From assembly GCA_947304585.1 (NCBI GenBank), contig CAMZBI010000001.1, positions 25,501-89,500 of the forward strand: a stretch of 64,000 nucleotides of DNA. The letters are read 5' to 3'. This DNA is from an uncultured Clostridia bacterium. GTDB taxonomy: Bacteria; Bacillota; Clostridia; UBA1212. Position 1 is the first letter of the stretch. Each line of letters begins with the position of its first letter. A model generated the notes under the pieces. The model ran no database searches. It saw only the letters and a list, made by a program, of their open reading frames with translations, and was not told where the DNA came from. The translations under genes and the position numbers were made by a program. Shown piece after piece: positions 6,138-56,567 of this stretch.

Positions 6138-6332
6138 ATCTCTATTATTACATCTATAAAAACCATTAATAAAAAGAGAGGAAAGCTCTCTCCGTGAGCC
6201 GTTTTTTCATATCGTACAATTTAAGTTTCAGCCCTTTTCAGAAAGGCCGTTTTGCTTTACAGAAAAGTCAAAATATGTTATAATCTCTATATTCCGATCG
6301 AGAGAAAAGATCCGGAAAAAAGGGAGGTAAAT

Positions 6333-7439
6333 ATGAAGTTTACTTGCAACAGAGATTTACTTGCCGAAGGACTCTCCATAGTCCAGAAGGCCATTCCGAA
6401 TAAGTCTAATTATCCTGCTCTTGAATGTGTGTTGATCGATGTCAGCGAGGACCTCATTTTAACCGGCTCTGACACGGATCTCAGTATAACTTATCAGGTT
6501 CCTGTCATGATAATCGAAGAGATCGGACAGACATTGGTCAATGCAAAAGTGTTCTGCGATATAGTGAGAAAACTGCCGGACATTTTTGTTACGATAGAAA
6601 CCGCCGATAACGGTACGCTGGTGGTAAACTGCGGAAATTCCCACTTTGAACTGCCCACCATTAATCCGGAGCAGTATCCGAAGATCAGTTTTCTGACGGA
6701 CTCGGAGAACGCCCTTGAACTTCCCGCAGAGACCCTTAAAAATCTGATCAAACAGACGGTTTTTGCAGCCAGTGTTGACAATGCGAAAATGATCCTGAGA
6801 GGAGTTCTGGCTGAAAACTCCGGGAACGAACTCAGATTTGTGGCAATAGACGGCTACAGGATGGCATACAAGTCATATCCCAGCGATTACGAAGAGGATT
6901 TCCGAATAGTTATTCCTGCAAAGGTGCTAAGCGAACTTGTTAAGATCATTGAGAAAAGCGAAAAATCCGTCAGATTCTGTTTCAGTGACAATCAGGTAAT
7001 GTTCTACAACGGAAGCTTCTCGCTGATCTCGAATCTTTTAAAAGGAGATTTTCCGGACTACAAGATGCTCATTCCGAAGAGCTATATGTGCGTCATGAAG
7101 GTCAAAAATCAGGTCTTTGTGGACACTATCGAAAGAGTATCTCTTGTCATTAACGACGATAAAAAGTGGTTTGTCGATCTGACCACGTATCCGGATCAGG
7201 TGTTTATCTGCGCAGCAGGCGAAAACGGAAGATCCCACGAGACGGTTGCGGCGGATATATCGGGACAGGAGATACTGATCTCGTTCAACGAAAAGATACT
7301 TACCGAATGTTTGAGAGCCATCGACAAAGAGATCGTTACGGTTAATTTTTCTTCTGAAAAAGGACCCTGCGTCATTGCGGCGGACGAAGACAACTCGTAT
7401 TTCATTCTGCTGATGCCTGTCAAACACAAATCCAGGTGA
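6333..7439 (+). CDS. dnaN: DNA polymerase III beta sliding clamp
   Basis: MKFTCNRDLL… sliding-clamp fold; GGGAGG RBS; follows dnaA. Confidence 0.95.
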   Translation: MKFTCNRDLLAEGLSIVQKAIPNKSNYPALECVLIDVSEDLILTGSDTDLSITYQVPVMIIEEIGQTLVNAKVFCDIVRKLPDIFVTIETADNGTLVVNCGNSHFELPTINPEQYPKISFLTDSENALELPAETLKNLIKQTVFAASVDNAKMILRGVLAENSGNELRFVAIDGYRMAYKSYPSDYEEDFRIVIPAKVLSELVKIIEKSEKSVRFCFSDNQVMFYNGSFSLISNLLKGDFPDYKMLIPKSYMCVMKVKNQVFVDTIERVSLVINDDKKWFVDLTTYPDQVFICAAGENGRSHETVAADISGQEILISFNEKILTECLRAIDKEIVTVNFSSEKGPCVIAADEDNSYFILLMPVKHKSR

Positions 7440-7443
7440 AAAG

Positions 7444-8580
7444 GTGATAATTAAAGGGTTAGAACTTCACAATTTCAGAAATTACAACAGCCTCACGGTT
7501 GATTTTTCCCCGTCCATTAACGTTATCTACGGGAAAAACGGTTACGGGAAAACCAATTTGCTTGAGGCTATGTTTTTATGCTGCGTCGGAAAATCCTTTA
7601 AGTCCGTAAAAGACACGGATCTTATACAGTACGGGAAAGACAGTTATAAGGTCAAGACCCGTATCGACAATAACATCTGCAAGAGTATAAGTGTTTTTTA
7701 TGAGAGAAACAAGTCAAAATACGTTGAAATAGACGGAGCCTACATTGAGAAGCTGAGGATGCTTTTCGGCAATCTCATCGGCCTTGTCTTTTCTCCGGAA
7801 TCTGTTAGAGTAGTTACTGACGGCCCGGCCTACAGGAGAAGGCTTCTTGACATTGCCCTTTGCCAAATAAAAAAGGACTACTACTACAGCTTGATGATGT
7901 ACAACCGGTTCTGCGAAGAGAAGGGAAAGCTTCTCGAACAGGGAACGGCTGCCGATCCCATTGAAATGGAGTCGTTAAACGAAAATATTGCACTGTACGG
8001 AGCAAGTATCGCAGTCGACAGAAAAAATTTCGTTGCGCAGCTGAATGAGCTTGCCGGGAAATACTATTCCGAAATCGCAGGTGAAAGGGAGACAGTCACC
8101 ATGCGATACGAGCCTTTCATCCACTCGTTCTCCGGAGCGGTTAACGAAGGCCTTGAAAATGAAAACCGGTCCGTGACGGAAAGGGTCAAAGAGGAATTTC
8201 TGAAGGAACTCTCTGACGAAAGGCTGATGAAGAGGGAAAGGGAATTCAGAAAGAATCTGATCGGCATCCAAAGGGACGACATCGGCATGTTTCTCGGCGG
8301 AAACAGTCTGAGAAATTTCGGCTCTCAGGGGCAGAAGAGAAGTTTTGCCATTGCGATCACATTGGCGGAACTGGAGATTTTGAGGCAGAAATCGGGCAGG
8401 ACACCCGTGCTTTTCCTTGACGACGTGCTCTCCGAACTGGACAGCTCCAGAAAAAGAAAAATCATCGAAATGACCGGAAAAATACAAACGTTTTACACCT
8501 GCACGGAGAAAGAGATGATGGGTGCGGCTGTTGCCGGAGGGGCGCCGGTGAACTTTATTGATGTTGAAAAACTGAGGTAA
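7444..8580 (+). CDS. recF: DNA replication/repair protein RecF
   Basis: N-terminal P-loop NGYGKTNLLEA; SMC-like signature near the C-terminus. Confidence 0.93.
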   Translation: MIIKGLELHNFRNYNSLTVDFSPSINVIYGKNGYGKTNLLEAMFLCCVGKSFKSVKDTDLIQYGKDSYKVKTRIDNNICKSISVFYERNKSKYVEIDGAYIEKLRMLFGNLIGLVFSPESVRVVTDGPAYRRRLLDIALCQIKKDYYYSLMMYNRFCEEKGKLLEQGTAADPIEMESLNENIALYGASIAVDRKNFVAQLNELAGKYYSEIAGERETVTMRYEPFIHSFSGAVNEGLENENRSVTERVKEEFLKELSDERLMKREREFRKNLIGIQRDDIGMFLGGNSLRNFGSQGQKRSFAIAITLAELEILRQKSGRTPVLFLDDVLSELDSSRKRKIIEMTGKIQTFYTCTEKEMMGAAVAGGAPVNFIDVEKLR

Positions 8581-8626
8581 AAATGATAAAATAAATGTGT
8601 ATATTTACACATCCCGGGAGCAGAAA

Positions 8627-10848
<2,222 letters not shown>

Positions 10849-10961
10849 CGATTTACTCCCCAAAGAGGCGGAGGGAGTCGCAAGACCCCGAAAGAATCTT
10901 GATTATCTGACCCCGGACCCTGCGGAAGACGTTGATGCGGGCCGGAGAACGGAAGTAAAAA

Positions 10962-11723
10962 ATGGCTGTTAAGATCATTGCTATTGCAAACCAAAAAGGC
11001 GGAGTGGGAAAGACAACGACTGCGATCAACCTCTCCGCTTCCGTTGCCTATTACGGGAAGAGGGTGCTCCTTGTGGATCTGGATCCCCAGGGAAACGCCA
11101 CTACGGGTCTTGGCATAAACAAGAAAAACCTGGAAAAGTCTTCCTATGACGCCGTGATCAATGACGAACCCGCTTCGGACATTATCATAAAGACGTCCCA
11201 GGAGAATCTGTATCTCATGCCGTCAAACATTTCCCTGGCGGGAGCGGAAGTGGAACTGGTCAGCCTTATGTCGAGGGAGAGCAAACTGAAACTGGCCCTT
11301 GACGAGATCCGGGACGACTATGACTACGTATTTATCGACTGCCCGCCGGCGCTGGGGCTTCTGACGCTCAACGCGCTGACCGCCGCGGATACGGTGCTTG
11401 TGCCCATCCAATGTGAGTTCTACGCCCTTGAGGGACTGTCCCAGCTTCTGGACACTGTTAAAAAAGTTCAGAAGTACCTGAACCGCAGACTGACTGTGGA
11501 GGGCGTAGTTATGACCATGTTCGACGTCAGGACAAATCTTTCGGCGGAAGTTGTCGATGAGGTGAGAAAATATTTCGGGGACAAGGTCTACTCCACATTG
11601 ATCCCCCGGAACATACGGCTGGGCGAGGCGCCGAGCTACGGACAGTCTATAATCCAGTATGACAGCAAATCAAAGGGGGCAGAGGCCTACCTTTCCCTTG
11701 CAAGAGAAGTTCTTGACAAATAG
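10962..11723 (+). CDS. soj: ParA/Soj chromosome partitioning ATPase
   Basis: Deviant Walker A KGGVGKTT. Confidence 0.9.
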   Translation: MAVKIIAIANQKGGVGKTTTAINLSASVAYYGKRVLLVDLDPQGNATTGLGINKKNLEKSSYDAVINDEPASDIIIKTSQENLYLMPSNISLAGAEVELVSLMSRESKLKLALDEIRDDYDYVFIDCPPALGLLTLNALTAADTVLVPIQCEFYALEGLSQLLDTVKKVQKYLNRRLTVEGVVMTMFDVRTNLSAEVVDEVRKYFGDKVYSTLIPRNIRLGEAPSYGQSIIQYDSKSKGAEAYLSLAREVLDK

Positions 11724-11816
11724 TTCAACCGAATCGCATTCTACAGGATCACATTCAAATGGATTGCAGGAGAGGCGAAAATCGTATTAAATCCGGTATT
11801 AAAGGAGGCGGCTTGA

Positions 11817-12710
11817 ATGGCCAGGAAAAGAAACAGCGGTTTGGGACTGGGCATTGACGCACTGTTCCAAAGCACAACAGACCGGGAAGGATCTTTGCCG
11901 GTCACAGGCTCAGTACTGGAAGTGAAGATCAGCGACATTGAGCCGGACGAGAGTCAGCCCCGTAAAAATTTTGATTTCGAGAAGATCAACGAGCTGGCGG
12001 AGTCCATAAAAGCCCACGGCGTTATCCAGCCGCTTATTGTGAGAAGCGAAGGCCCGGTCTATAAAATTATTGCGGGCGAGCGCCGGTGGCGGGCGGCCAG
12101 GATCGCCGGTCTTGAGACTGTGCCGGTCATTGAGAAGTCGGTAACCGAACGGGAAGTTCTGGAGATCGCCCTGATCGAAAACATCCAGCGGGAGGACCTG
12201 AACCCGATTGAAGAGGCGGAGGCCTTTGACAGACTGATCAACGATTTCGGCATGACCCAGGAGACGTTGGCGTCCACTATTTCCAAAAGCAGGACCGACA
12301 TAACCAATTCGATCCGCCTGCTCTCCCTTGACCCCGAGATCAAGGCCATGATCGCAGCAGGTCAGCTCACAAAGGGTCACGGGAAAGCCCTTCTGGGACT
12401 GAACGGTTCCATTGATGCGGTAAAAGTTGCCAAGGCCATGGCGGAGGAGAGCATCAGCGTCCGGCAGGCGGAAAAACTTGTCAGCAGATACAATGCGCTG
12501 AAGAGCGGCTCCGAGCCGAAAAAAGCGGAAGCCGGAAGCGACGAGTTTACCATTTCAAAGAAGAGCGTTGAGTCAAAACTGAAGAAAAAACTGGGGACAA
12601 AGATATCCCTGGTGGAGAAAGCCAAAAACGGAAAAGGCAAGATCCAGATCTTTTACTATTCCGCAGACGAGAGAGAGCGGCTGATAGAGATGCTTCTCGG
12701 CGAAGATTGA
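11817..12710 (+). CDS. spo0J: ParB/Spo0J chromosome partitioning protein
   Basis: GERRWRAA CTPase motif and HTH; AAAGGAGG RBS. Confidence 0.9.
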   Translation: MARKRNSGLGLGIDALFQSTTDREGSLPVTGSVLEVKISDIEPDESQPRKNFDFEKINELAESIKAHGVIQPLIVRSEGPVYKIIAGERRWRAARIAGLETVPVIEKSVTEREVLEIALIENIQREDLNPIEEAEAFDRLINDFGMTQETLASTISKSRTDITNSIRLLSLDPEIKAMIAAGQLTKGHGKALLGLNGSIDAVKVAKAMAEESISVRQAEKLVSRYNALKSGSEPKKAEAGSDEFTISKKSVESKLKKKLGTKISLVEKAKNGKGKIQIFYYSADERERLIEMLLGED

Positions 12711-32415: not shown

Positions 32416-32516
32416 CAAAAGCAAACTTTTTGTGGCAAGACAAGACGAAATGAGTTTGGTACAATTTGCAATGTAAAAAATAGCCGGCATTTTTAAGACG
32501 GGAGGTGATTCCGCAA

Positions 32517-33005
32517 ATGAACACAGCTGAAAAAATCATAGCGCTCAGAGCTGAGAGAGGCATTTCGCAGCAGGAACTTGCTGACGCAGTTTTTGTTTCA
32601 CGATCTCTCGTGTCAATGTGGGAGGCGGGAACACGCATTCCGGACAGTTTGAGCGTTGAGAAAATGGCTGCGTTGTTCAATGTAAGTGAGGAGGAGATTT
32701 TGAGCGATAGGAAATACGCTTTTGCGTCGTCGCTTGAGAGGAAACTCATTGGCGATGAGATTGCGGAGTTTACCGATGTTGACAGTTCACCGGGTGACAA
32801 GGAACAGGTAAAAAAGATAATGAACGGGTTCCTTCAAAGCATTGGTGGCGTTGACCGCGAGTTGTTTATGAGTCGATACTTCGAAATGAAAACATGCAAA
32901 GCTATCTCAGAGGAAACGCATATGAACGTTTCTACAGTCAGGTGGAGATTGTCCAAACTGAGAAAGAAGCTTGTGCTTTACGCGAAAAAAGGAGGTAAAA
33001 AATGA
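32517..33005 (+). CDS. XRE-HTH + sigma-70 region 4 fusion regulator (ECF-like)
   Basis: N-terminal Cro/C1 HTH (…RGISQQELADAVFVSRSLVSMWEAG…); C-terminal sigma region 4.2-like (…RELFMSRYFEMKTCKAISEETHMNVSTVRWRLSKLRKKL). GGAGGTG RBS. Confidence 0.65.
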   Translation: MNTAEKIIALRAERGISQQELADAVFVSRSLVSMWEAGTRIPDSLSVEKMAALFNVSEEEILSDRKYAFASSLERKLIGDEIAEFTDVDSSPGDKEQVKKIMNGFLQSIGGVDRELFMSRYFEMKTCKAISEETHMNVSTVRWRLSKLRKKLVLYAKKGGKK

Positions 33006-35233
33006 ACGAAAAAGACTTTAGGGAGGCTTTGTCTGAGATTGGAAATGACGTCGATGCGCCAATTTCGGGCGACGCAGTGATAAAAAATAAAAGTAAATTC
33101 AGAAACATTGTGATCATATCTGCCGCGGCGGCAATCGTGCTGACTTTTGCGGTCATTGCCGCTGTTATTATCGGTACGATCGGATCGAATAATCAAAACA
33201 TAAGCGGGGGAGGGCCTTCTGACAAGGTCCTTTTGGTGAATACTCCTTCGCCTGGAGGTATTGACAAGACCGAAGAACCCGGCAATAAAGCAAACCACGG
33301 GGCAACGTCCTCGCCGACCGCAGACCCGACTTCAGCTCCCACAAATCCGCCAATTTCTCAGCCCACTGAGACTCCTGATGGACCTCAAGGGACTCGGGAG
33401 CCTTATTACGTTGAGCCTTTCTGGCTTAAGGGGGAGTATTTGACGGTCAAAAAGCTTGGCTACGGCGGCTCCTCAAACATCGTTTCCTTTGGCGAGGGGA
33501 GTGTCAGCGCAAAGATTATCCCCACAACGGTATTCGGCGAGCATGAGAACTGCGGGAAGGTCTACTATAACACGGAGACCAATGAGATATATTGCGTTTA
33601 CCACGAGTTTCTGGAGGCCTCGGGCGTGACCGTGCCGGAGGGTTATTACATCTATTATGAGCAGGACACGGTGCGGGACGATCTGATGTGCATAAAGATT
33701 GTTGATCCGGGTGACCTTGGCACCACGGACCTGTGGCTTTTTGACATGGACGACCGCCTGGCAAAGAGAGTGGGGCTTCCGGAGGGATGCGGCAGCTACG
33801 AGGATATAAAGATCTATACGCCGGGCCTCTGCAACGGGAAGCTTGCCCTTTGCGTCAGCGATGACATTGGCGATTGCTACATAAGTATTTTTAACAGCGG
33901 AACAGGTGAATATCAGGACTTCGGCAAGGACGCAGGCCTTAAGTCTCTGACCTGCACCTTCCTGACGGAGACTGTGCTTGAGGTGTCGACTCCCGACGGG
34001 TATTACGCCTGGAACACCGCCAATTCTAGAATGTTCAAGCTTATCGGTGAGCACAATATCGTGTTTGACGGGCTCCTTTATTCCGTGAAGAACTGGTGGG
34101 GAGGCTACCATAAGGACGTGGAAGTGGCGGTATATAACGTCGAGACCGGGCTCCTGAGGAAGGGAAGCGGCGGCGTGTTGGCATTGGCGGTGATGGACGA
34201 CGGATCCTACGGCGTGCTTTCTATTGACGACGAGACCGGAAATGAGACGGTCATCATGGATCATTATACGGAGGGCGCTACTGCCTGGAGCAAAGATCAT
34301 GCCTACTTTTACGCATATTCCGCCAAGGACAACAGAGTCCTCTGCTATTCGGTCTCCGCTTGCCAATGGACTTTTGCAGACGTTGCTCCGATAACAAAAG
34401 ATCCGGTACTCGTCGAAGGGACTCTTTATGCGGTGTTCAACAGCTGCAGGCTTGCCGTCGACGACAACTGCAGGGAGGTTACGCTTTACCACACAAGAAA
34501 ACTGGAAGAAATACCTGACCTTCCGGATTTTGAGGAGCAGAGGGTTGACTCCCCTTACTGGGACGACTATCGCGACATTGCCGCAAATAACCGTTTCTCG
34601 GAAACTGACCGCTGGTATGTCACCTACAAAGAGGACAGGGTCAGCACGGGATGGATCGGACATGACGTCGCCAACATGGATGCCCTGCGGGATATCATAC
34701 TGCTTTGCCTGGAGACCCGGGGCGAAAGACTAAAATACGATTTGACTGAAAGCGATTACGACTTCTTTAAAATGAGTTTCAGCTACAGTACATTCAGCAT
34801 GGAGTTTTTTGAAAAAGACGGCAGATACTACTTGAATCTCAATGCCAACAGACAGCCTCCAATGGGTTTCGTGAGTGAATTCAGCGAGATACCGGAAGAG
34901 ACTTTCCTAAGGGTCATGGATATGCACAGCCCTTACGTTCAGTTCACATGGATATCGGTATCAGCCCGAATCGACGATGTTTCAGATCCAAATTGCAAGG
35001 TGGTACTTGATGAGAGCGAGAAGAGTTATTTGAAGGAGTTAATATCTTCCGGCAATTGGAGGCAAAACGATTTTCAGGGCGTTACGTATTTCAGGTACGC
35101 ATGCTTTTTCATTGACGGTGATGTGTGGTTCTGTTATGAGCCCAACATGAAAATCTTGCAGGATATCATGCACTCAACACATATAGAGCTAACAGACGAG
35201 GAGTGCGCCGCCATCGACATAATGCTGAATTGA
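33002..35233 (+). CDS. single-pass membrane anti-sigma-like protein with large extracytoplasmic domain
   Basis: 4-nt overlap with the regulator gene; short cytoplasmic N-terminus, one TM helix (IVIISAAAAIVLTFAVIAAVIIG), about 680-aa exterior domain. Confidence 0.5.
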   Translation: MNEKDFREALSEIGNDVDAPISGDAVIKNKSKFRNIVIISAAAAIVLTFAVIAAVIIGTIGSNNQNISGGGPSDKVLLVNTPSPGGIDKTEEPGNKANHGATSSPTADPTSAPTNPPISQPTETPDGPQGTREPYYVEPFWLKGEYLTVKKLGYGGSSNIVSFGEGSVSAKIIPTTVFGEHENCGKVYYNTETNEIYCVYHEFLEASGVTVPEGYYIYYEQDTVRDDLMCIKIVDPGDLGTTDLWLFDMDDRLAKRVGLPEGCGSYEDIKIYTPGLCNGKLALCVSDDIGDCYISIFNSGTGEYQDFGKDAGLKSLTCTFLTETVLEVSTPDGYYAWNTANSRMFKLIGEHNIVFDGLLYSVKNWWGGYHKDVEVAVYNVETGLLRKGSGGVLALAVMDDGSYGVLSIDDETGNETVIMDHYTEGATAWSKDHAYFYAYSAKDNRVLCYSVSACQWTFADVAPITKDPVLVEGTLYAVFNSCRLAVDDNCREVTLYHTRKLEEIPDLPDFEEQRVDSPYWDDYRDIAANNRFSETDRWYVTYKEDRVSTGWIGHDVANMDALRDIILLCLETRGERLKYDLTESDYDFFKMSFSYSTFSMEFFEKDGRYYLNLNANRQPPMGFVSEFSEIPEETFLRVMDMHSPYVQFTWISVSARIDDVSDPNCKVVLDESEKSYLKELISSGNWRQNDFQGVTYFRYACFFIDGDVWFCYEPNMKILQDIMHSTHIELTDEECAAIDIMLN

Positions 35234-49819: not shown

Positions 49820-51238
49820 TCACCTTTTTCCCGCATCCTTGCCGATCCTGAAGATAAGATTGCCGTTTTCGTCATAGCCGGAATAAACGGTCTCCACGTT
49901 GAGTCCGATCGAATTAACAAGCGGGCCCTTATCATATACACTTTTCACGTATTCCGAAACTATGAGACAGTACTCACCGTAATCAATAACTGCAGTCGGC
50001 GTTCCTGCGTCAAAGTCCTGAAAACGACTGTCATTTGAGAAAATGAATGAACCGTTTATAATTCCCACTAACGATTCGTTGCGAAACATATTATCTGACA
50101 CTGTCGATCCGAGAACGTTAAGGTCGTAATCGATCTCCACGTTCATGTCGACAGCGAGAACGGTTTTACCGGAATCAACAAAATCACCGTCGGTCGACTG
50201 CGTTCTGACGAAAAGCATAAACCCGCCCTCAGAGGGTTTTGCATAGTTTAAATGATCAAAATCACTGCCTTTGAGGAAACCTCTTTTGATCTCTTGTCCG
50301 TCATCGGCGAGAATGATCATTATAACGTCGGTCTCTCCGTAGTCACGCCACTTCTGCTGATCACGATGCGTTCCGAAAAAGAAATATCTGCCTTCCCTTT
50401 CGATGCAGTTGTAAAACGAACTGCCCTCAAGGCCGTCAAATGCTTTATCAAACTGGAGATTTCCGAATCTGTCGCATTTTATGACTCTCGAGGCGTAACC
50501 TTCATCGCTCGCCCGTTTTTGATCCAAATAGTCATAAGTATAATCTTGAAAGCCGAGGACGAAAAGAAAGCCTCCGTCGGAAGTTGCGGTCAGTGTCGTG
50601 ACGATGTATGCGTCATCGCATTTCACGGTATACTCGGCAAGAACGTCGCCAAAGATATCGAGCATCGTTACCTTTTGAACGACCGTTCTCGTTTCCGGAT
50701 CTTTTTCAACGGTCTCACTTTTCAGCAGTCTGTCGGAAAAAGCTTTGGCGTCTTTAAAGGCGTTCTCATCGATGAGGCTCGTAAGCTCCGGCGGTATCGC
50801 GCCGCTGTCTGTCTCTCGAGGCGGGAAAACGTACCTGTTCCAGATTTCCTCAAGCATCTCGGGTGTCATTTCGGCGTTCCCGATCTCCTCGCAGGGAACA
50901 CTGTTTTTGATTACTTCCGCTGTTTTCTCATCCGTGAACCTTTTTTCTATGATATCGAAGAATACGTTTTTCATTTCTGTACGGCTGAGACCTTCCGAAT
51001 TCAGTCCGTTGTTTTCAAAGAAGGCTGAAGCAGCGTCAAAGGCCTTGGCTTCCGAATAGGCAAATACGCCTGCCACGGCAGCAAGTGCCGCGATTAGAAG
51101 AACGCATACGGACACGGGTATCCATCGTAAATGGTTCCGGCTGTTTTTTTTACTCGATCCTGAGTACGATCTCAAAGCACGGTCAGCCATTTCTTCGTCT
51201 ATACCGGCGAACGCGTCGAAAAGCTGGTTATCTTTCAT
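49820..51238 (-). CDS. single-pass membrane anti-sigma-like protein (paralog of 33002..35233)
   Basis: N-terminus MKDNQLFDAFAGIDEEM resembles MNEKDFREALSEIGNDV of the first partner; one TM helix; 4-nt overlap with the upstream regulator gene. Confidence 0.5.
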   Translation of the reverse strand: MKDNQLFDAFAGIDEEMADRALRSYSGSSKKNSRNHLRWIPVSVCVLLIAALAAVAGVFAYSEAKAFDAASAFFENNGLNSEGLSRTEMKNVFFDIIEKRFTDEKTAEVIKNSVPCEEIGNAEMTPEMLEEIWNRYVFPPRETDSGAIPPELTSLIDENAFKDAKAFSDRLLKSETVEKDPETRTVVQKVTMLDIFGDVLAEYTVKCDDAYIVTTLTATSDGGFLFVLGFQDYTYDYLDQKRASDEGYASRVIKCDRFGNLQFDKAFDGLEGSSFYNCIEREGRYFFFGTHRDQQKWRDYGETDVIMIILADDGQEIKRGFLKGSDFDHLNYAKPSEGGFMLFVRTQSTDGDFVDSGKTVLAVDMNVEIDYDLNVLGSTVSDNMFRNESLVGIINGSFIFSNDSRFQDFDAGTPTAVIDYGEYCLIVSEYVKSVYDKGPLVNSIGLNVETVYSGYDENGNLIFRIGKDAGKR

Positions 51239-51717
51239 TTTTTTGACTCCTTTATGTACCTTGCAAGTTTGGCTCTTGTCTTTGAGAGAATGCTCCTGAC
51301 GTGATTCTCGCGAATGCCGTACGCTTCAGCGATCTCGGCAGTGTTCTTCAGGTGATAGTAACGATTAATAAAAATATCAGCGTCCTTTTCCGGGATGCTC
51401 CTTAGAAAACGGTCCAAAACAACTGCCAGATCTGCGTCGCTGATTTCGATTCCGGCAAGGTTGCCGTCAAAGAGTTCTTTGAAAACAAGGTCGGTTGTAT
51501 CAACTATTTCGTCAACTTTGGCGTTAAATACTTCTGCTATTTTTTCGATCATACGATAATTCGGACGCCTCGTTCCGTTTTCCCATTTTGAGACCAGATC
51601 TCTTGAGACAAACAAACTGTCGGCAAGCACCTGCTGAGACATACCGTTTTTATTGCGCAATTCACTTATTTTTTTGCCGATATTCAGCGAAAACACCTCC
51701 TTTGACCATGATCGCAT
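51235..51717 (-). CDS. XRE-HTH + sigma-70 region 4 fusion regulator (paralog of 32517..33005)
   Basis: Same two-domain architecture (…GMSQQVLADSLFVSRDLVSKWENG… and …DIFINRYYHLKNTAEIAEAYGIRENHVRSILSKTRAKL). Confidence 0.65.
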   Translation of the reverse strand: MRSWSKEVFSLNIGKKISELRNKNGMSQQVLADSLFVSRDLVSKWENGTRRPNYRMIEKIAEVFNAKVDEIVDTTDLVFKELFDGNLAGIEISDADLAVVLDRFLRSIPEKDADIFINRYYHLKNTAEIAEAYGIRENHVRSILSKTRAKLARYIKESKK

Positions 51718-51900: not shown

Positions 51901-52085
51901 GAGTTATGTACAGTACCCGCGAAAACCCTTAAAAACCCGGGAAAATACCGCCAAGAAATCTAAAACGACCACACCCCCCAAGGATAAAGACTCCTTCGCG
52001 GGGGCTTTTTCGTGGCGTTGTACAAGCGCTAAGAGGCCCCCGAAAGCGCTTGCACTTTTGGGAGGAGAAAAGCCGCAACGACGTT
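51901..52085 (+). repeat. partial copy (F) of the structured repeat, upstream of the AAA ATPase gene
   Basis: ATGTACAGTA…TCTAAAACGACCACAC; GACTCC-TTCGC-GGGGGTC hairpin; GAGGCCCCCGAAAGCGCTTGCACTTTTGGGAGGAG. Confidence 0.65.
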
Positions 52086-52201
52086 TTTGGATATGAATCA
52101 AATTCACTTGACAAATTGCGATTATGTATATATAATGCCAAAAACAAATTGCGATTACGTCGTGATTTGACCCAAAAGAAATTGCGACAGGAGATTACGC
52201 C

Positions 52202-53530
52202 GTGTTTAGAAGAAAAATCTATGATAAGCTTTTGGAGTGGAAAAAGGAATCACAGGGCAGAACTGCGTTGATGATTGAAGGGGCTGGGCGAGTTGGAAAA
52301 TCGACAGTAGCGGAAGAATTTGCGAAAAATGAATATGACAGTTTTATTCTTATAGACTTTTCAATTGCGCCGCAGGCTGTCAAGAACCTTTTCGATGATA
52401 TGTCGAATCTTGATTTCTTCTTTCTTCAACTTCAACTGCTATACCATGTCGACCTCGAAGAACACAGATCTATTATTATTTTTGACGAAGTGCAGTTCTT
52501 TCCAAAAGCCAGGCAGGCGATAAAGCATCTGGTCAAGGACCGAAGATACGATTATCTTGAGACGGGCTCTCTTATCTCGATAAAGAAAAACGTAAAAGAC
52601 ATTCTGATTCCAAGTGAGGAACAGAAAATCAAAATGTATCCGATGGACTATGAGGAATTCCTTTGGGCCATTGGCGATAATACGACGATTCCTCTGATCC
52701 GCCAATGCTTTGAATCGCGAAAGGCTGTGGGCGAACAGCTGAACCGGAGACTTATGCGCGATTTCAGGTTATATATGCTTGTCGGCGGTATGCCTCAGGC
52801 TGTAAATGAATACCTGGAAACGAATAATTTACGGAAAGTCGATCTTGTCAAGCGAACGATTTTGTCGCTTTACGAAGAGGATTTCAGGAAAATCGACCCA
52901 TCCGGAAGAGCTTCTATGATGTTCGATGCCATACCTGCGCAACTTTCGAAGAACGCATCAAGATATATGATAACAAGTGCTCTGCAAAAGAGAAAGACCG
53001 AAAAAACATCCGAAATGATAGCCGATATGGCAGATTCAGGGACCGTTTTGATTGCTTGTCATGCTGACGACCCGAACGTCGGCCTTTCGGCCACCGGAGA
53101 CTTTTCCTCTTTTAAGATGTTTGTATGTGATACCGGACTTTTCGTAACACTGATGTTCAAGGACCGTGATTTTACTGAAAATATCATATATGAAAAACTG
53201 CTTAACGACAAGATTGGAGCAAATCTTGGATATTTGTACGAGAATGCCGTGGCACAAACGCTTGCATCTAACGGAGACAGGTTGTTTTACTACACATTTT
53301 TCAACGAGTCATCCCGGCACAACTACGAGATCGATTTTCTCTTGGCACGCGGAAACAAGATTTGCCCTGTTGAAGTTAAATCGTCAGGATACAAGGCCCA
53401 TGTTTCTTTAGATAAGTTTTTTGAGAAGTACTCGTCGCGTATTCTTCAAAAATATCTTGTTTATACTAAAGATCTCGCCAAAGATACCGATACGCTTTGC
53501 GTGCCTGTTTATATGGCCCAATTCATGTAA
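52202..53530 (+). CDS. AAA+ ATPase (AAA_14 + DUF4143 family)
   Basis: Walker A GAGRVGKST; the widespread orphan ATPase family; GTG start after AGGAG; low GC. Confidence 0.75.
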   Translation: MFRRKIYDKLLEWKKESQGRTALMIEGAGRVGKSTVAEEFAKNEYDSFILIDFSIAPQAVKNLFDDMSNLDFFFLQLQLLYHVDLEEHRSIIIFDEVQFFPKARQAIKHLVKDRRYDYLETGSLISIKKNVKDILIPSEEQKIKMYPMDYEEFLWAIGDNTTIPLIRQCFESRKAVGEQLNRRLMRDFRLYMLVGGMPQAVNEYLETNNLRKVDLVKRTILSLYEEDFRKIDPSGRASMMFDAIPAQLSKNASRYMITSALQKRKTEKTSEMIADMADSGTVLIACHADDPNVGLSATGDFSSFKMFVCDTGLFVTLMFKDRDFTENIIYEKLLNDKIGANLGYLYENAVAQTLASNGDRLFYYTFFNESSRHNYEIDFLLARGNKICPVEVKSSGYKAHVSLDKFFEKYSSRILQKYLVYTKDLAKDTDTLCVPVYMAQFM

Positions 53531-53775
53531 GATTATTGCCAAGAAAACTAAAACGTCTACACACTCCACGAAAAAAGACTCCTTCGCGGGGTCTTTTTTC
53601 GTGGTGGAGCAAGTAAAGAAAGAGGCCCCCGAAAGTGCTTGCACTTTTGGGAGGAGGAGCCAAAACGGCGGAAATGGGGAGTCCTTCAAGGAAACGAAAA
53701 AACGAGAGTGGAATAATGACAAATAATAACGGTTTGTTGCCGACTGAGTGGTGAAGCTTCAGCAGGCATTTTTTA
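53531..53775 (+). repeat. copy G of the structured repeat, immediately downstream of the AAA ATPase gene
   Basis: CTAAAACGTCTACACAC; perfect 14-bp stem CCACGAAAAAAGAC/GTCTTTTTTCGTGG around the TTCGC loop; GAGGCCCCCGAAAGTGCTTGCACTTTTGGGAGGAGGAGCC; terminator. Confidence 0.7.
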
Positions 53776-54033
53776 CAAATTGAAAATAGGAGGATCTTAA
53801 AAAGAAATAAACAATTGAAAACGACATTTATTCAGAAAAGTACTGTTGCCCGCTCAAGTTCAATTGCTACGAAGGAGGCGTTGAAGAATGTTGAATGTGA
53901 GTTCAAAATGAAGTATCATTCCGGTGGATATTGTATGCATAAGAAGCAGAAAAAACCTAATGGTTTTTCATACCGGTCTGCGGTATAAAAAGCGGATGAG
54001 ATTCACATATTGTTGCGACATTTTGGAGGGAAC

Positions 54034-54384
54034 ATGAAAACAATAGTTATTGGGCTTGGCGGATTAGGATGCAGGGCTGTTTCACAAATATATGGGAAAC
54101 TTGATAAAAGAAAAGTTGAGGCATTTGGATTAGATGTCGATTGTGTTGATCTTGACCATATAATGAAAGGATCGACCGGACTCCCGTGTTTTTTCGTGAG
54201 TCCTATAAGAGATTTGAACTCGACGGATTTATCAGTATTAACATCAATATTAAACAATAAAGAATGGTTTCCGTTTGATCATATTCCTCCCATCTCACAT
54301 AATGTGGGAGGCAATAGAGCATTCGGAAGACTGTTTTTTGAATCATTCCTTCAACTGAAAAAAATGATTTCTTATCTCGCCTAG
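54034..54384 (+). CDS. tubulin/FtsZ (TubZ-like) GTPase, N-terminal part (T1 loop), separated from its continuation by an A7 homopolymer frameshift
   Basis: MKTIVIGLGGLGCRAV resembles the FtsZ/TubZ T1 glycine loop; frame-1 ORF stops at 54384. Confidence 0.45.
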   Translation: MKTIVIGLGGLGCRAVSQIYGKLDKRKVEAFGLDVDCVDLDHIMKGSTGLPCFFVSPIRDLNSTDLSVLTSILNNKEWFPFDHIPPISHNVGGNRAFGRLFFESFLQLKKMISYLA

Positions 54385-54422
54385 AGCAAGCGTATTACGA
54401 GGCTCAAGGACCTGTTAGAGTT

Positions 54423-56567
54423 GTGATTGTGACTTCTTTAGCAGGAGGCTTTGGCTCAGGGGTACTAATACCTTTATCATTGATGATAAGGGGACTGTCC
54501 GAGGCTTATAGTACCGGAAAAACAATAATAACAGGCGTTTTTATCTCTCCTGAATCCTTTATTTCTTTTTTATGGGACGATCTGTCGTTATATGAGAAAG
54601 ACGCTATGCGTGCGAATGCGTATGCAACTTTAAAAGAGTTGAATATGATTAACGAAATATGTATGTCAAAGTCACCGGCAAATGATGTATGGGATATGAA
54701 AATAATGGATCTGTTTGATAGCGACAAAGACAAGGGAAATAGAAGAAAAATCCCATTTGATGAAGTCTTATTTGTCAAATCTCAATACGCAAAAAACGAC
54801 CGGTGGGACTTCATTGATGAAGTGTCCAATTGCCTGTTGACCATTGTAACGTCTGGATTATATGCCTCTAAAAAGGATGCGAATTTAGCCCTAGTACCGT
54901 ACGGGATTTATGGTGACTATTCCGGAGTTTGTGGATACGTTGGCTCGTCGTGCATAACTTATCCTTACCGTTTTGTTGTGAAATACTGTTGCTGGCGCGC
55001 AACGATTCGTGAATTATCCGACGTGTGGACGTTAGTAGATCGAGAAATAAAAAACACAAAATGTGATCATAGCCCTGAAAGCGGTGACTCAAGAGACAAC
55101 AAGGAGAGCCTTGGAAAGCTGTTTGTTGCGACTGTTAACAGCATGCTTGAAGATGGCAACTCCAAACTTGGTTTTATTGCCAATGCAATTACAGATAGCT
55201 CTGAAGACGGAAGTCAGTTCGACAAGGTCGACGTATATTACGATCATGTGTATAATTTTGTCTTGGATAAAATTAGGAGTGACGAAGAAATCAAGACGAA
55301 ATCTGATGGAGCCGGTGTTACAGAGAAGCAGCTGAAGGACAATTTAGTGACCGGTGTAACCCGCTGCGAAACTGCTTTAAAGGATTATTTTTATACGATC
55401 GACAGCAGAATTGACCATATTCGCAGTTTGGTTGTTCCTGTCATCCCGGATGATTCAGGTTTTGTAATTATTCCTGACAGCAACTTGGACATCATGAAGC
55501 TTGTTACAAGTCATGGACACATTGTCCACCCGCTTGCAATGCGTATGCTTCTGTATAAGTTCAGAGCAAAAGTGGCTGAAGAGTATGAACGCAGCTCTTC
55601 GTTAACGGCATCTTATATTGAAGACATTAACTACTATTTTAAAAAAGCATACGACATCAAGGGAACAGAGAGAATTGAGCATGCGTACGATCGCGCTGAT
55701 CAGAAAGGGTTTTTCAAACAAAGAAAGTTCAGAGCAGAGTATTTGATTAAATCTGCAGATCAGAAGTCATTACTTGACAAATACCGTGATACAAAAGCTA
55801 TTGCAGTTGTTTTTGGTGATATCCTTGAGCGCCTTGATTATATTATTGATGTTTTTGAAAAGTTCTTTGATTCTTTGGATCATGTAGTAAAGGAATTACA
55901 ACGCGGTGTTGAGGATTTGGAAAAAAGTATAATGAAAACGGAGGGAAGCCTGTATCTGTCGAAACCCGAAATTGAAGAGATTTATGACTCCCTGGATATA
56001 AGTTCTTTTGAGTTTAACAATAGTGACATATTTGAAGTTATCTTTAATGAGTTATATATGAAGGCACTTCATCCCTATGAGTACAAACATTATGGAGACA
56101 ATTTTTTTGTGGAAAAGATTATTCCAATAATAGAGTCCAATTTTACTGAGGCGTTTTCCAATAAACTTAATCTGGATCTATTTGATGTGATGGAGAAAGT
56201 TGCTGAGGGAGACAGAGGTTTAGAAGAAAAAATGGTTGGTTCTGCCTGTCAACGAGCAACTCCTCCGGTAGCTTTTGCTCCGATCGATTTGTCGATATGC
56301 ATTGTAAACAACTCGTTATATGAGCACCTTGAAATGGATAATGCTTTGTCAGTATTCTCCCACCATTGTGGTGTTGATACGGCTGACTGCGTCAGTAATA
56401 AAGATGCGATATTTTTAAGAGAAAAAAGCGGATTGTCTTTTGCCGATATTATTCTTTCAGCGGAATTCACCAAGTGTGAAGAGGCGTATAAATTAGTGCT
56501 TGATAAATACAAAAAAAGCCCCCGGGGTAATTATTGTCCGCATATTGACAAGAGATGGTGCGTGTAA
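54423..56567 (+). CDS. tubulin/FtsZ (TubZ-like) GTPase, continuation (T4 loop onward) with about 570-aa C-terminal extension
   Basis: Frame-3 reading is already open from 54342 (…KNDFLSRLEQAYYEAQGPVRVVIVTSLAGGFGSGVLIPLSLMIRGL…); AGGFGSG matches the tubulin signature [SAG]GGTG[SA]G. One extra A in the run 54358-54364 fuses both parts into a protein of about 840 aa. Confidence 0.45.
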   Translation: MIVTSLAGGFGSGVLIPLSLMIRGLSEAYSTGKTIITGVFISPESFISFLWDDLSLYEKDAMRANAYATLKELNMINEICMSKSPANDVWDMKIMDLFDSDKDKGNRRKIPFDEVLFVKSQYAKNDRWDFIDEVSNCLLTIVTSGLYASKKDANLALVPYGIYGDYSGVCGYVGSSCITYPYRFVVKYCCWRATIRELSDVWTLVDREIKNTKCDHSPESGDSRDNKESLGKLFVATVNSMLEDGNSKLGFIANAITDSSEDGSQFDKVDVYYDHVYNFVLDKIRSDEEIKTKSDGAGVTEKQLKDNLVTGVTRCETALKDYFYTIDSRIDHIRSLVVPVIPDDSGFVIIPDSNLDIMKLVTSHGHIVHPLAMRMLLYKFRAKVAEEYERSSSLTASYIEDINYYFKKAYDIKGTERIEHAYDRADQKGFFKQRKFRAEYLIKSADQKSLLDKYRDTKAIAVVFGDILERLDYIIDVFEKFFDSLDHVVKELQRGVEDLEKSIMKTEGSLYLSKPEIEEIYDSLDISSFEFNNSDIFEVIFNELYMKALHPYEYKHYGDNFFVEKIIPIIESNFTEAFSNKLNLDLFDVMEKVAEGDRGLEEKMVGSACQRATPPVAFAPIDLSICIVNNSLYEHLEMDNALSVFSHHCGVDTADCVSNKDAIFLREKSGLSFADIILSAEFTKCEEAYKLVLDKYKKSPRGNYCPHIDKRWCV

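Follow-up and report, generated by a model that had tools for sequence, protein, structure and literature searches.

What does the interrupted gene at positions 54034-56567 of a 64,000-nucleotide stretch from an uncultured Clostridia bacterium (contig CAMZBI010000001.1; the whole stretch is called the window here) encode, and why is its reading frame broken? A sequence-only reading had proposed a TubZ-like GTPase of about 840 amino acids (aa), split by the deficit of a single nucleotide (nt) in a run of seven adenines (A7). Our analysis retains the split gene and assigns it differently: the locus adds a frameshifted, mosaic member to a known, experimentally uncharacterised family, and represents no TubZ and no system of a new kind. 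Judged by its sequence, the gene is a short-form member of the FtsZ-like-1 family (FtsZl1; Pfam Tubulin_2, PF13809). We favour a recent and genuine inactivating frameshift in a horizontally acquired, stand-alone short-form FtsZl1 gene, a reading to which we assign a probability of roughly 0.55. The break itself is defined by the following features, in which ORF stands for open reading frame.

54025-54030, plus strand: Shine-Dalgarno-like GGAGGG, read from the sequence, 3 nt 5' of the ATG
54034-54384, plus strand: ORF1, from the ATG at 54034 to the TAG at 54382-54384; its product begins MKTIVIGLGGLGCRAV
54342-56567, plus strand: second reading frame, open after the TGA at 54339-54341 and ending with the TAA at 56565-56567
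54358-54364, plus strand: A7 run, site of the 1-nt deficit; the frame is regained by one extra A or by a -1 slip

Direct reading bore out the coordinates and sequences proposed for both ORFs and the A7 run. ORF1 comprises the 109 N-terminal codons of a tubulin-like domain (strand S1, the T1 loop and a degenerate T3-like region), followed by seven out-of-frame codons and the TAG. The second frame encodes residues ~110-844, that is, the remaining tubulin-like domain, a helical stalk and the C-terminal region, and includes VIVTSLAGGFGSGV; the 714-aa ORF starting from the GTG at 54423 is present in the public collection as P0001. The frames overlap by 40 nt (54342-54381), the interval in which a switch can join them, and A7 is the sole homopolymer there. 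Adding one A to it yields an uninterrupted protein of 844 aa with the junction ESFLQLKKNDFLSRLEQAYYEAQGPVRVV, and the 844 codons contain no stop apart from the frameshift. When five homologues (P0002 and P0006-P0009) were compared with the locus by tblastn, frame 1 was matched by four of them up to ~54339-54405 and frame 3 by all five from ~54372-54414. As the matches of these homologues pass from frame 1 to frame 3 at this point and a single Pfam match crosses the junction, the join is no coincidence; on sequence grounds, chance would fall far short of explaining it. All homologues examined carry one continuous ORF through the break site, and the gene of ~840 aa split at A7 thus stands, with a fused length of 844 aa.

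To which family does the fused protein belong? It scores 97.2 bits with PF13809 (Tubulin_2, 'Tubulin like'), for which the cut-off is 27, at E=1.6e-27; the match covers residues 4-279 and profile positions 1-298 of 356, while the match to PF00091 (Tubulin/FtsZ) stays below threshold (16 bits vs 33). Searches of NCBIfam and PADLOC with the fused protein gave no match, and a family profile search of the PDB sequences revealed no solved relative of the tubulin-like protein. An AlphaFold2 model displays an N-terminal domain of alternating strands and helices, followed by very long helices, among them those at residues 500-634. The hidden Markov model search and the structure prediction had both been named as checks, and the proposed large protein of the tubulin/FtsZ superfamily is sustained. 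The same two lines of evidence led us to reject an E1/ThiF or other Rossmann NAD/FAD identity, which the sequence-only reading had already judged less fitting; the N-terminus was placed in no Rossmann family. What did not hold is the TubZ-like label, since PF13809 corresponds to the FtsZl1 family described by Makarova and Koonin in 2010 (PMC2875224). Its members have an architecture of ~1050-1200 aa with an FtsZ-like domain, a long stretch of coiled coil and an alpha-helical C-terminal domain, and its describers could not identify the T6-H7-T7 elements in it (PMC2875224). The intact 844-aa product would consist of a tubulin/FtsZ-fold nucleotide-binding domain (residues 1 to ~345), a helical stalk (~360-640) and a helical C-terminal region. 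The ~570 aa that had been called unrecognised are in fact the conserved helical and coiled-coil part of the family and align with homologues to the last residues.

54034-55067, plus strand: tubulin/FtsZ-fold domain, residues 1 to ~345
56538-56558, plus strand: conserved C-terminal motif PHIDKRW (residues 836-842; PHxDxxW in the family), in which P836, H837, D839 and W842 each reach a conservation of 99% or more

The length of the protein requires explanation, as complete family members are nearly all 1120-1320 aa long (typically ~1150 aa) and the first eight homologues found in a word-based search all measured 1119-1193 aa. Of the FtsZl1 architecture, the window protein has the domain and the helical stalk and lacks the last ~230 aa. 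It shares this absence with P0012 and with 12 of 190 family representatives, which end 4-17 aa after PHxDxxW, while the others have a tail with a median of 232 aa. Exhaustive phmmer searches recovered P0011 (860 aa) and P0012 (851 aa). Both can be aligned with the window protein over the whole length: they begin alike, with MKTIVIGLGGFGC, and finish at the same point, with CPHIDKRWC plus ~8 aa. In a tree of the N-terminal domain, the window protein groups with these two and three more short forms. A second word-based search, employing the short-form alignment, returned nothing new. Given the ends shared with P0011 and P0012 and the short tail of the 12 representatives, 844 aa is, as far as the alignments tell, the full length of a minority short form. 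We also considered whether the protein betrays a degenerating pseudogene by its departures from 67 columns conserved in long forms. It departs at 22-23 of them against a median of 1 for long forms, but this was dropped as a test because the intact P0011 and P0012 depart equally (at 24 and 22).

54052-54072, plus strand: T1 glycine loop GLGGLGC (residues 7-13), within IVIGLGGLGC after strand S1
54435-54461, plus strand: T4 tubulin signature loop SLAGGFGSG (residues 135-143), in which Phe140 (TTT, 54450-54452) replaces Thr

The nucleotide-site motifs give a divided picture. The FtsZ/TubZ-type T1 glycine loop that had been pointed out is present, and the family alignment A1 shows no variation at its residues G7, L8, G9, G10 and G12. 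At residue 11, a Leu here, 110 of 178 long forms (62%) have Thr and three have Leu, so that GGLG is unremarkable, Leu occurring elsewhere in the family. For the T4 loop, the earlier proposal was right about the loop and its glycines but not about the complete signature: the pattern [SAG]GGTG[SA]G is replaced by AGGFGSG, which amounts to two nucleotide changes, with the glycines and the Ser retained and the signature Thr exchanged for Phe. Across 69 long forms, conservation of this Thr is 99%, and of 155 recognised long forms 149 read 'GT' in the motif. Two further short forms, P0090 (SF) and P0155 (AA), have lost the Thr too, so that its loss is enriched in short forms (3 of 14, compared to roughly 1 of 155 long forms), which suggests relaxed selection on GTP handling in the former. 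Because Phe stands in place of the T4 Thr, the label 'GTPase' is doubtful for this copy. In addition, long forms have a motif, GAGQxRxxSR, in which we ourselves see a likeness to the tubulin and FtsZ T3 loop; the short forms that were aligned (the window protein, P0011 and P0012) have it in degenerate form.

55113-55832, plus strand: recombinant patch in the helical stalk, codons ~361-600, from a long-form, P0002-like lineage

The stalk has a history of its own. Within the patch, nucleotide identity is 63-82% to L001 and L087, which hold the closest genes of the P0002 clade, and 64-78% to L002, while in the flanks identity to L001 and L087 is 32-57% on the N-terminal and 27-60% on the C-terminal side. 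On the protein level, the patch is 74% identical to P0002 and 30-32% to the short-form relatives P0011 and P0012; its flanks are ~35% identical to the long-form clade, and P0011 and P0012 are the only proteins with which the C-terminal segment can be aligned in full. In the family as a whole the N-terminal domain is best conserved and the stalk worst (42-62% and 14-38%, respectively, for P0002 vs P0006), a pattern that is inverted between the window gene and the P0002 clade. An old recombination explains this best: it would have grafted a long-form stalk of the P0002 clade into a short-form gene. The longest exact match in the patch spans only 17 nt, hence the recombination was not recent or its donor has not been sampled. 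Concerted evolution of the stalk between short and long paralogues residing in the same genome was tested in L173 and not seen there; the mosaic accordingly looks like a one-off event. Nonsynonymous and synonymous differences in the patch amount to pN 0.16 and pS 0.80, the latter saturated. Dating the inactivation by dN/dS was given up, as synonymous sites are saturated in every comparison. A separate observation concerns L001 and L002, whose proteins (P0002 and P0003) are more than 90% identical: in their N-terminal domains pN is 0.03, with pS again saturated at 0.80. This indicates that the long-form tubulin-like domain may be under unusually strong purifying selection across hosts of differing codon usage.

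Why, then, is the frame broken? The absence of any other stop, together with pN 0.16 against pS 0.80 in the patch, implies purifying selection until recently. The break appears to be lineage-specific, as homologues are continuous and the three inspected at DNA level (L083, L084 and L001) have no A-run at the equivalent site. The G+C content of the gene is 38.9% compared to 48.5% for the window, a difference that indicates probable horizontal acquisition. None of the partners found beside long forms (A, C, D and the FtsK-like E, see below) left a trace in the 64-kb window when tblastn was run with A, C, D and the FtsK-like protein of L002 and with C and D of L084 and L085, and no remnant of the missing C-terminal domain was found elsewhere in the window. 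Within these 64 kb, the copy is a solitary, stand-alone gene. Several points weigh against a genuine and recent inactivation of such a gene. A7 is known from the assembly alone, so an assembly or consensus error at this position is possible. The gene is otherwise intact, which would fit a mis-assembled or slippage-switched functional gene as well, and the collections searched contain no near-identical copy, hence no comparison of A7 with A8. Only 64 kb of the genome are visible and a long-form operon may lie elsewhere in it. The AlphaFold2 model, built from an alignment of nine sequences, is of moderate confidence (predicted local distance difference test score, pLDDT, 67.9), and all functional statements on FtsZl1 are inference.

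The sequence-only reading had left three causes open: a sequencing error, phase variation and programmed frameshifting. The first is the strongest competitor, although we consider it clearly less probable than a real mutation. The true genome would then have A8 and express an intact 844-aa short-form FtsZl1 protein. A single base in a homopolymer is the commonest kind of consensus error, the remaining frame of 2.5 kb is intact, intact stand-alone short forms exist elsewhere, and the intact P0090 has Phe in T4 as well, so that Phe alone is no mark of a dead gene. On the other hand, for an Illumina-type error a run of seven is short. The window has 37 homopolymers of at least 7 nt, and only the run at 54358-54364 interrupts a long ORF; the other 36 break none, and the other flagged homopolymer sites are ordinary gene junctions. 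The assembly thus does not look prone to homopolymer errors.

Slippage switching, in which the A-run would serve as a contingency tract with A7<->A8 slippage during replication or low-level slippage during transcription, is unlikely. The break does lie exactly in a mononucleotide run, in the 5' part of an accessory, acquired gene of low G+C content, and one added A restores the frame, yet the tract is not conserved, none of the three homologues inspected having it at the corresponding site, and seven A's are at the low end for efficient slippage. A more elaborate version, which we regard as a long shot, treats the short forms as a distinct 'pseudo-tubulin' class with divergent T1 and T3-like loops, sometimes a divergent T4 loop, no C-terminal domain and an often stand-alone position. 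Such proteins would not cycle GTP and would cap, nucleate or antagonise long-form assemblies via a shared stalk, with the P0002-like stalk as interaction surface and A7 as a slippage switch. Programmed -1 ribosomal frameshifting at CUG AAA AAA AUG, producing a regulated fraction of full-length protein as in dnaX or IS3 transposases, is very improbable and went unsupported. Shifting by -1 on the two Lys codons (AAA) would give exactly the fused frame, but the 0-frame motif G AAA AAA differs from a canonical X XXY YYZ heptamer, the 96 nt downstream are no more prone to fold than shuffled sequences (z = -0.87), Rfam yielded no match, and the homologues examined are single ORFs without a slippery run. 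Least credible of all is a C-terminally truncated, decaying remnant of a ~1150-aa long-form FtsZl1 gene after operon loss, which the lengths of the first eight homologues, the stop right after PHIDKRW, the departure at 22 of 67 conserved columns and the lack of partner genes in the window had made worth considering, but which is contradicted by intact relatives of 851 and 860 aa with the same ends and similar departures (22-24), by the short tails of 12 of 190 representatives and by the absence of stops besides the frameshift.

A genuine inactivating frameshift in a short-form gene hence remains our preferred reading. Proteins of this kind had been taken to be rare in bacteria and usually encoded by plasmids or phages. 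Neither assumption survived: one peptide pattern alone confirmed 272 matching stretches in species-representative genomes of GTDB, mostly from gut and rumen Clostridia, and exhaustive phmmer searches yielded 371 clusters at 50% identity, while matches were limited to 4 of 72,556 plasmid records and 1 of 50,697 phage records. The plasmid-borne relatives bear the NCBI name 'tubulin-like domain-containing protein'. Since the family is almost absent from plasmids and phages, a segregation protein of the TubZ/PhuZ type was ruled out.

The neighbourhoods of homologues, a survey of which had also been proposed, differ between long and short forms: the former reside in a conserved operon, the contexts of the latter vary. 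In 79 loci the gene order is strongly conserved as A, tubulin-like gene, C, D and often an FtsK/SpoIIIE-like ATPase gene; examples are L002, L007, L011, L039, L043 (7810-22395) and L049, in addition to ~70 others. A (~745 aa) lies directly upstream of the tubulin-like gene in 71 of the 79 loci and encodes a protein with a signal peptide and a vWA domain with the DxSxS MIDAS motif (VWA_2 matches 3 of 14 members). This agrees with the vWA genes described beside FtsZl1 genes (PMC2875224). C measures ~650-700 aa and D ~1400-1750 aa, D having a C-terminal region with HExxH and CxxC. Profile positions 1258-1573 of the D alignment A5 match the PDB entry 9crn_A, a 'transglutaminase-like domain-containing protein', with E=1.5e-38; a literature search found no paper citing 9CRN. 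Of the operon partners, PADLOC matched only the FtsK-like ATPase, and we found no literature on the vWA-FtsZl1-C-D-FtsK-like operon and no experimental study of any FtsZl1 member in the literature searched.

Among the short forms, P0012 follows C and D, P0090 is encoded 5 kb upstream of an A-long-form-C operon, P0011 (in L088), P0071 and P0142 are solitary, and P0042 lies between Metallophos fragments. In L175 (48-3715), a short-form gene stands between two weak Metallophos fragments as if inserted into that gene, and in L084 (12698-15389) a short form is followed by a cassette of Metallophos, RNA-ligase and HD/AAA_33 genes that resembles RNA repair. These cases hint at a recurrent association of short forms with Metallophos. 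Three independent assemblies with P0012 (L084, L085 and L086) break or change no more than ~90 codons from where the C gene begins; in L084 this gene has a shorter N-terminus and adjoins unrelated PorV and YgbB genes. This suggests either a rearrangement hotspot or a repeat-induced assembly break at the C-gene start.

The surroundings of the window gene are chromosomal. Positions 6252-12710 carry dnaN, recF, gyrB, parA and parB, identified from ORF translations and gene order instead of a profile search; judged in this way, the window lies near oriC and the low-G+C islet with the ATPase and tubulin-like genes ~40 kb from it. The neighbours are an AAA_14/DUF4143 ATPase gene upstream (52202-53530) and a GNAT acetyltransferase gene. 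The description of a low-G+C gene beside a cassette-like ATPase was apt, the ATPase gene being bracketed by a direct repeat of ~120-140 nt (51950-52090 and 53538-53680, 85-97% identical). The repeat contains a terminator-like hairpin, its 37-nt core occurs at these two positions of the window only, and it has the look of an insertion target that was duplicated, or of the boundary of a cassette. A search for a syntenic copy of the locus via the GNAT gene was negative, as similarity was limited to the GNAT coding sequence and the contexts differed. Elsewhere in the window, at 32505-35233 (plus strand) and 49820-51717 (minus strand), two similar pairs each combine a small protein with HTH_3 and sigma-70 region 4 with a large protein (743 and 472 aa), the genes overlapping by 4 nt. 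The pair junctions lie at short homopolymers, yet are normal overlaps of stop and start and not frameshifts.

What would be made from this locus? As assembled, it should give rise to the 116-aa N-terminal fragment and, at best by re-initiation at the GTG at 54423, to a 714-aa fragment without T1-T3. Neither should fold as a tubulin domain, and the window copy is probably non-functional. For long-form FtsZl1 proteins, extending the prediction of 2010 (PMC2875224), we propose that they probably form a nucleotide-dependent assembling scaffold in a membrane-associated machine, whose partners would be the secreted vWA/MIDAS protein, two large unknown proteins (one of them HExxH/transglutaminase-like) and the FtsK-like ATPase. 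Short forms keep the fold and the stalk with altered nucleotide-site loops; they probably bind or hydrolyse GTP poorly and would act alone or modulate long-form assemblies.

Taken by itself, the locus probably holds no more than an accessory gene that is dead. It is of wider value in pointing to FtsZl1/Tubulin_2, the most divergent branch of the tubulin/FtsZ superfamily, predicted in 2010. Our survey shows this family to be common in gut and rumen Clostridia, usually within a tightly conserved vWA-FtsZl1-C-D(-FtsK-like) operon, with a minority of short paralogues that are often solitary and whose nucleotide-binding motifs are altered. Should the family ever be characterised, the short forms and the variants with T4 Thr changed to Phe or Ala would offer natural controls for the need of GTP turnover.

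How does the gene compare with known systems? TubZ and PhuZ are proteins of ~300-480 aa encoded by plasmids or phages, and TubZ works together with TubR and tubC. In contrast, the window gene is chromosomal, near oriC, and codes for 844 aa with a helical stalk; unlike type III partition systems with a TubZ-type protein of ~400-480 aa, it has no gene for a small DNA-binding partner, and its family is nearly absent from plasmids and phages. From FtsZ, CetZ, tubulin and BtubA it differs in lacking an FtsZ_C or Tubulin_C domain and in the loss of the T3 'GAG' and the T4 Thr, and FtsZl1 as a family differs from them in that T6-H7-T7 are not recognisable (PMC2875224). With homopolymer-frameshifted pseudogenes and contingency loci it shares a single-base change in run length that splits an otherwise intact ORF, although its tract, A7, is a short one that three homologues lack. 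The likeness is greatest to FtsZl1/PF13809 itself, given the HMM match well above threshold and the long-form relatives beside a vWA/MIDAS protein. From the usual FtsZl1 the window copy is set apart by its shortness (~230 aa less), its solitary position, the Phe in T4, the recombinant stalk and the broken frame.

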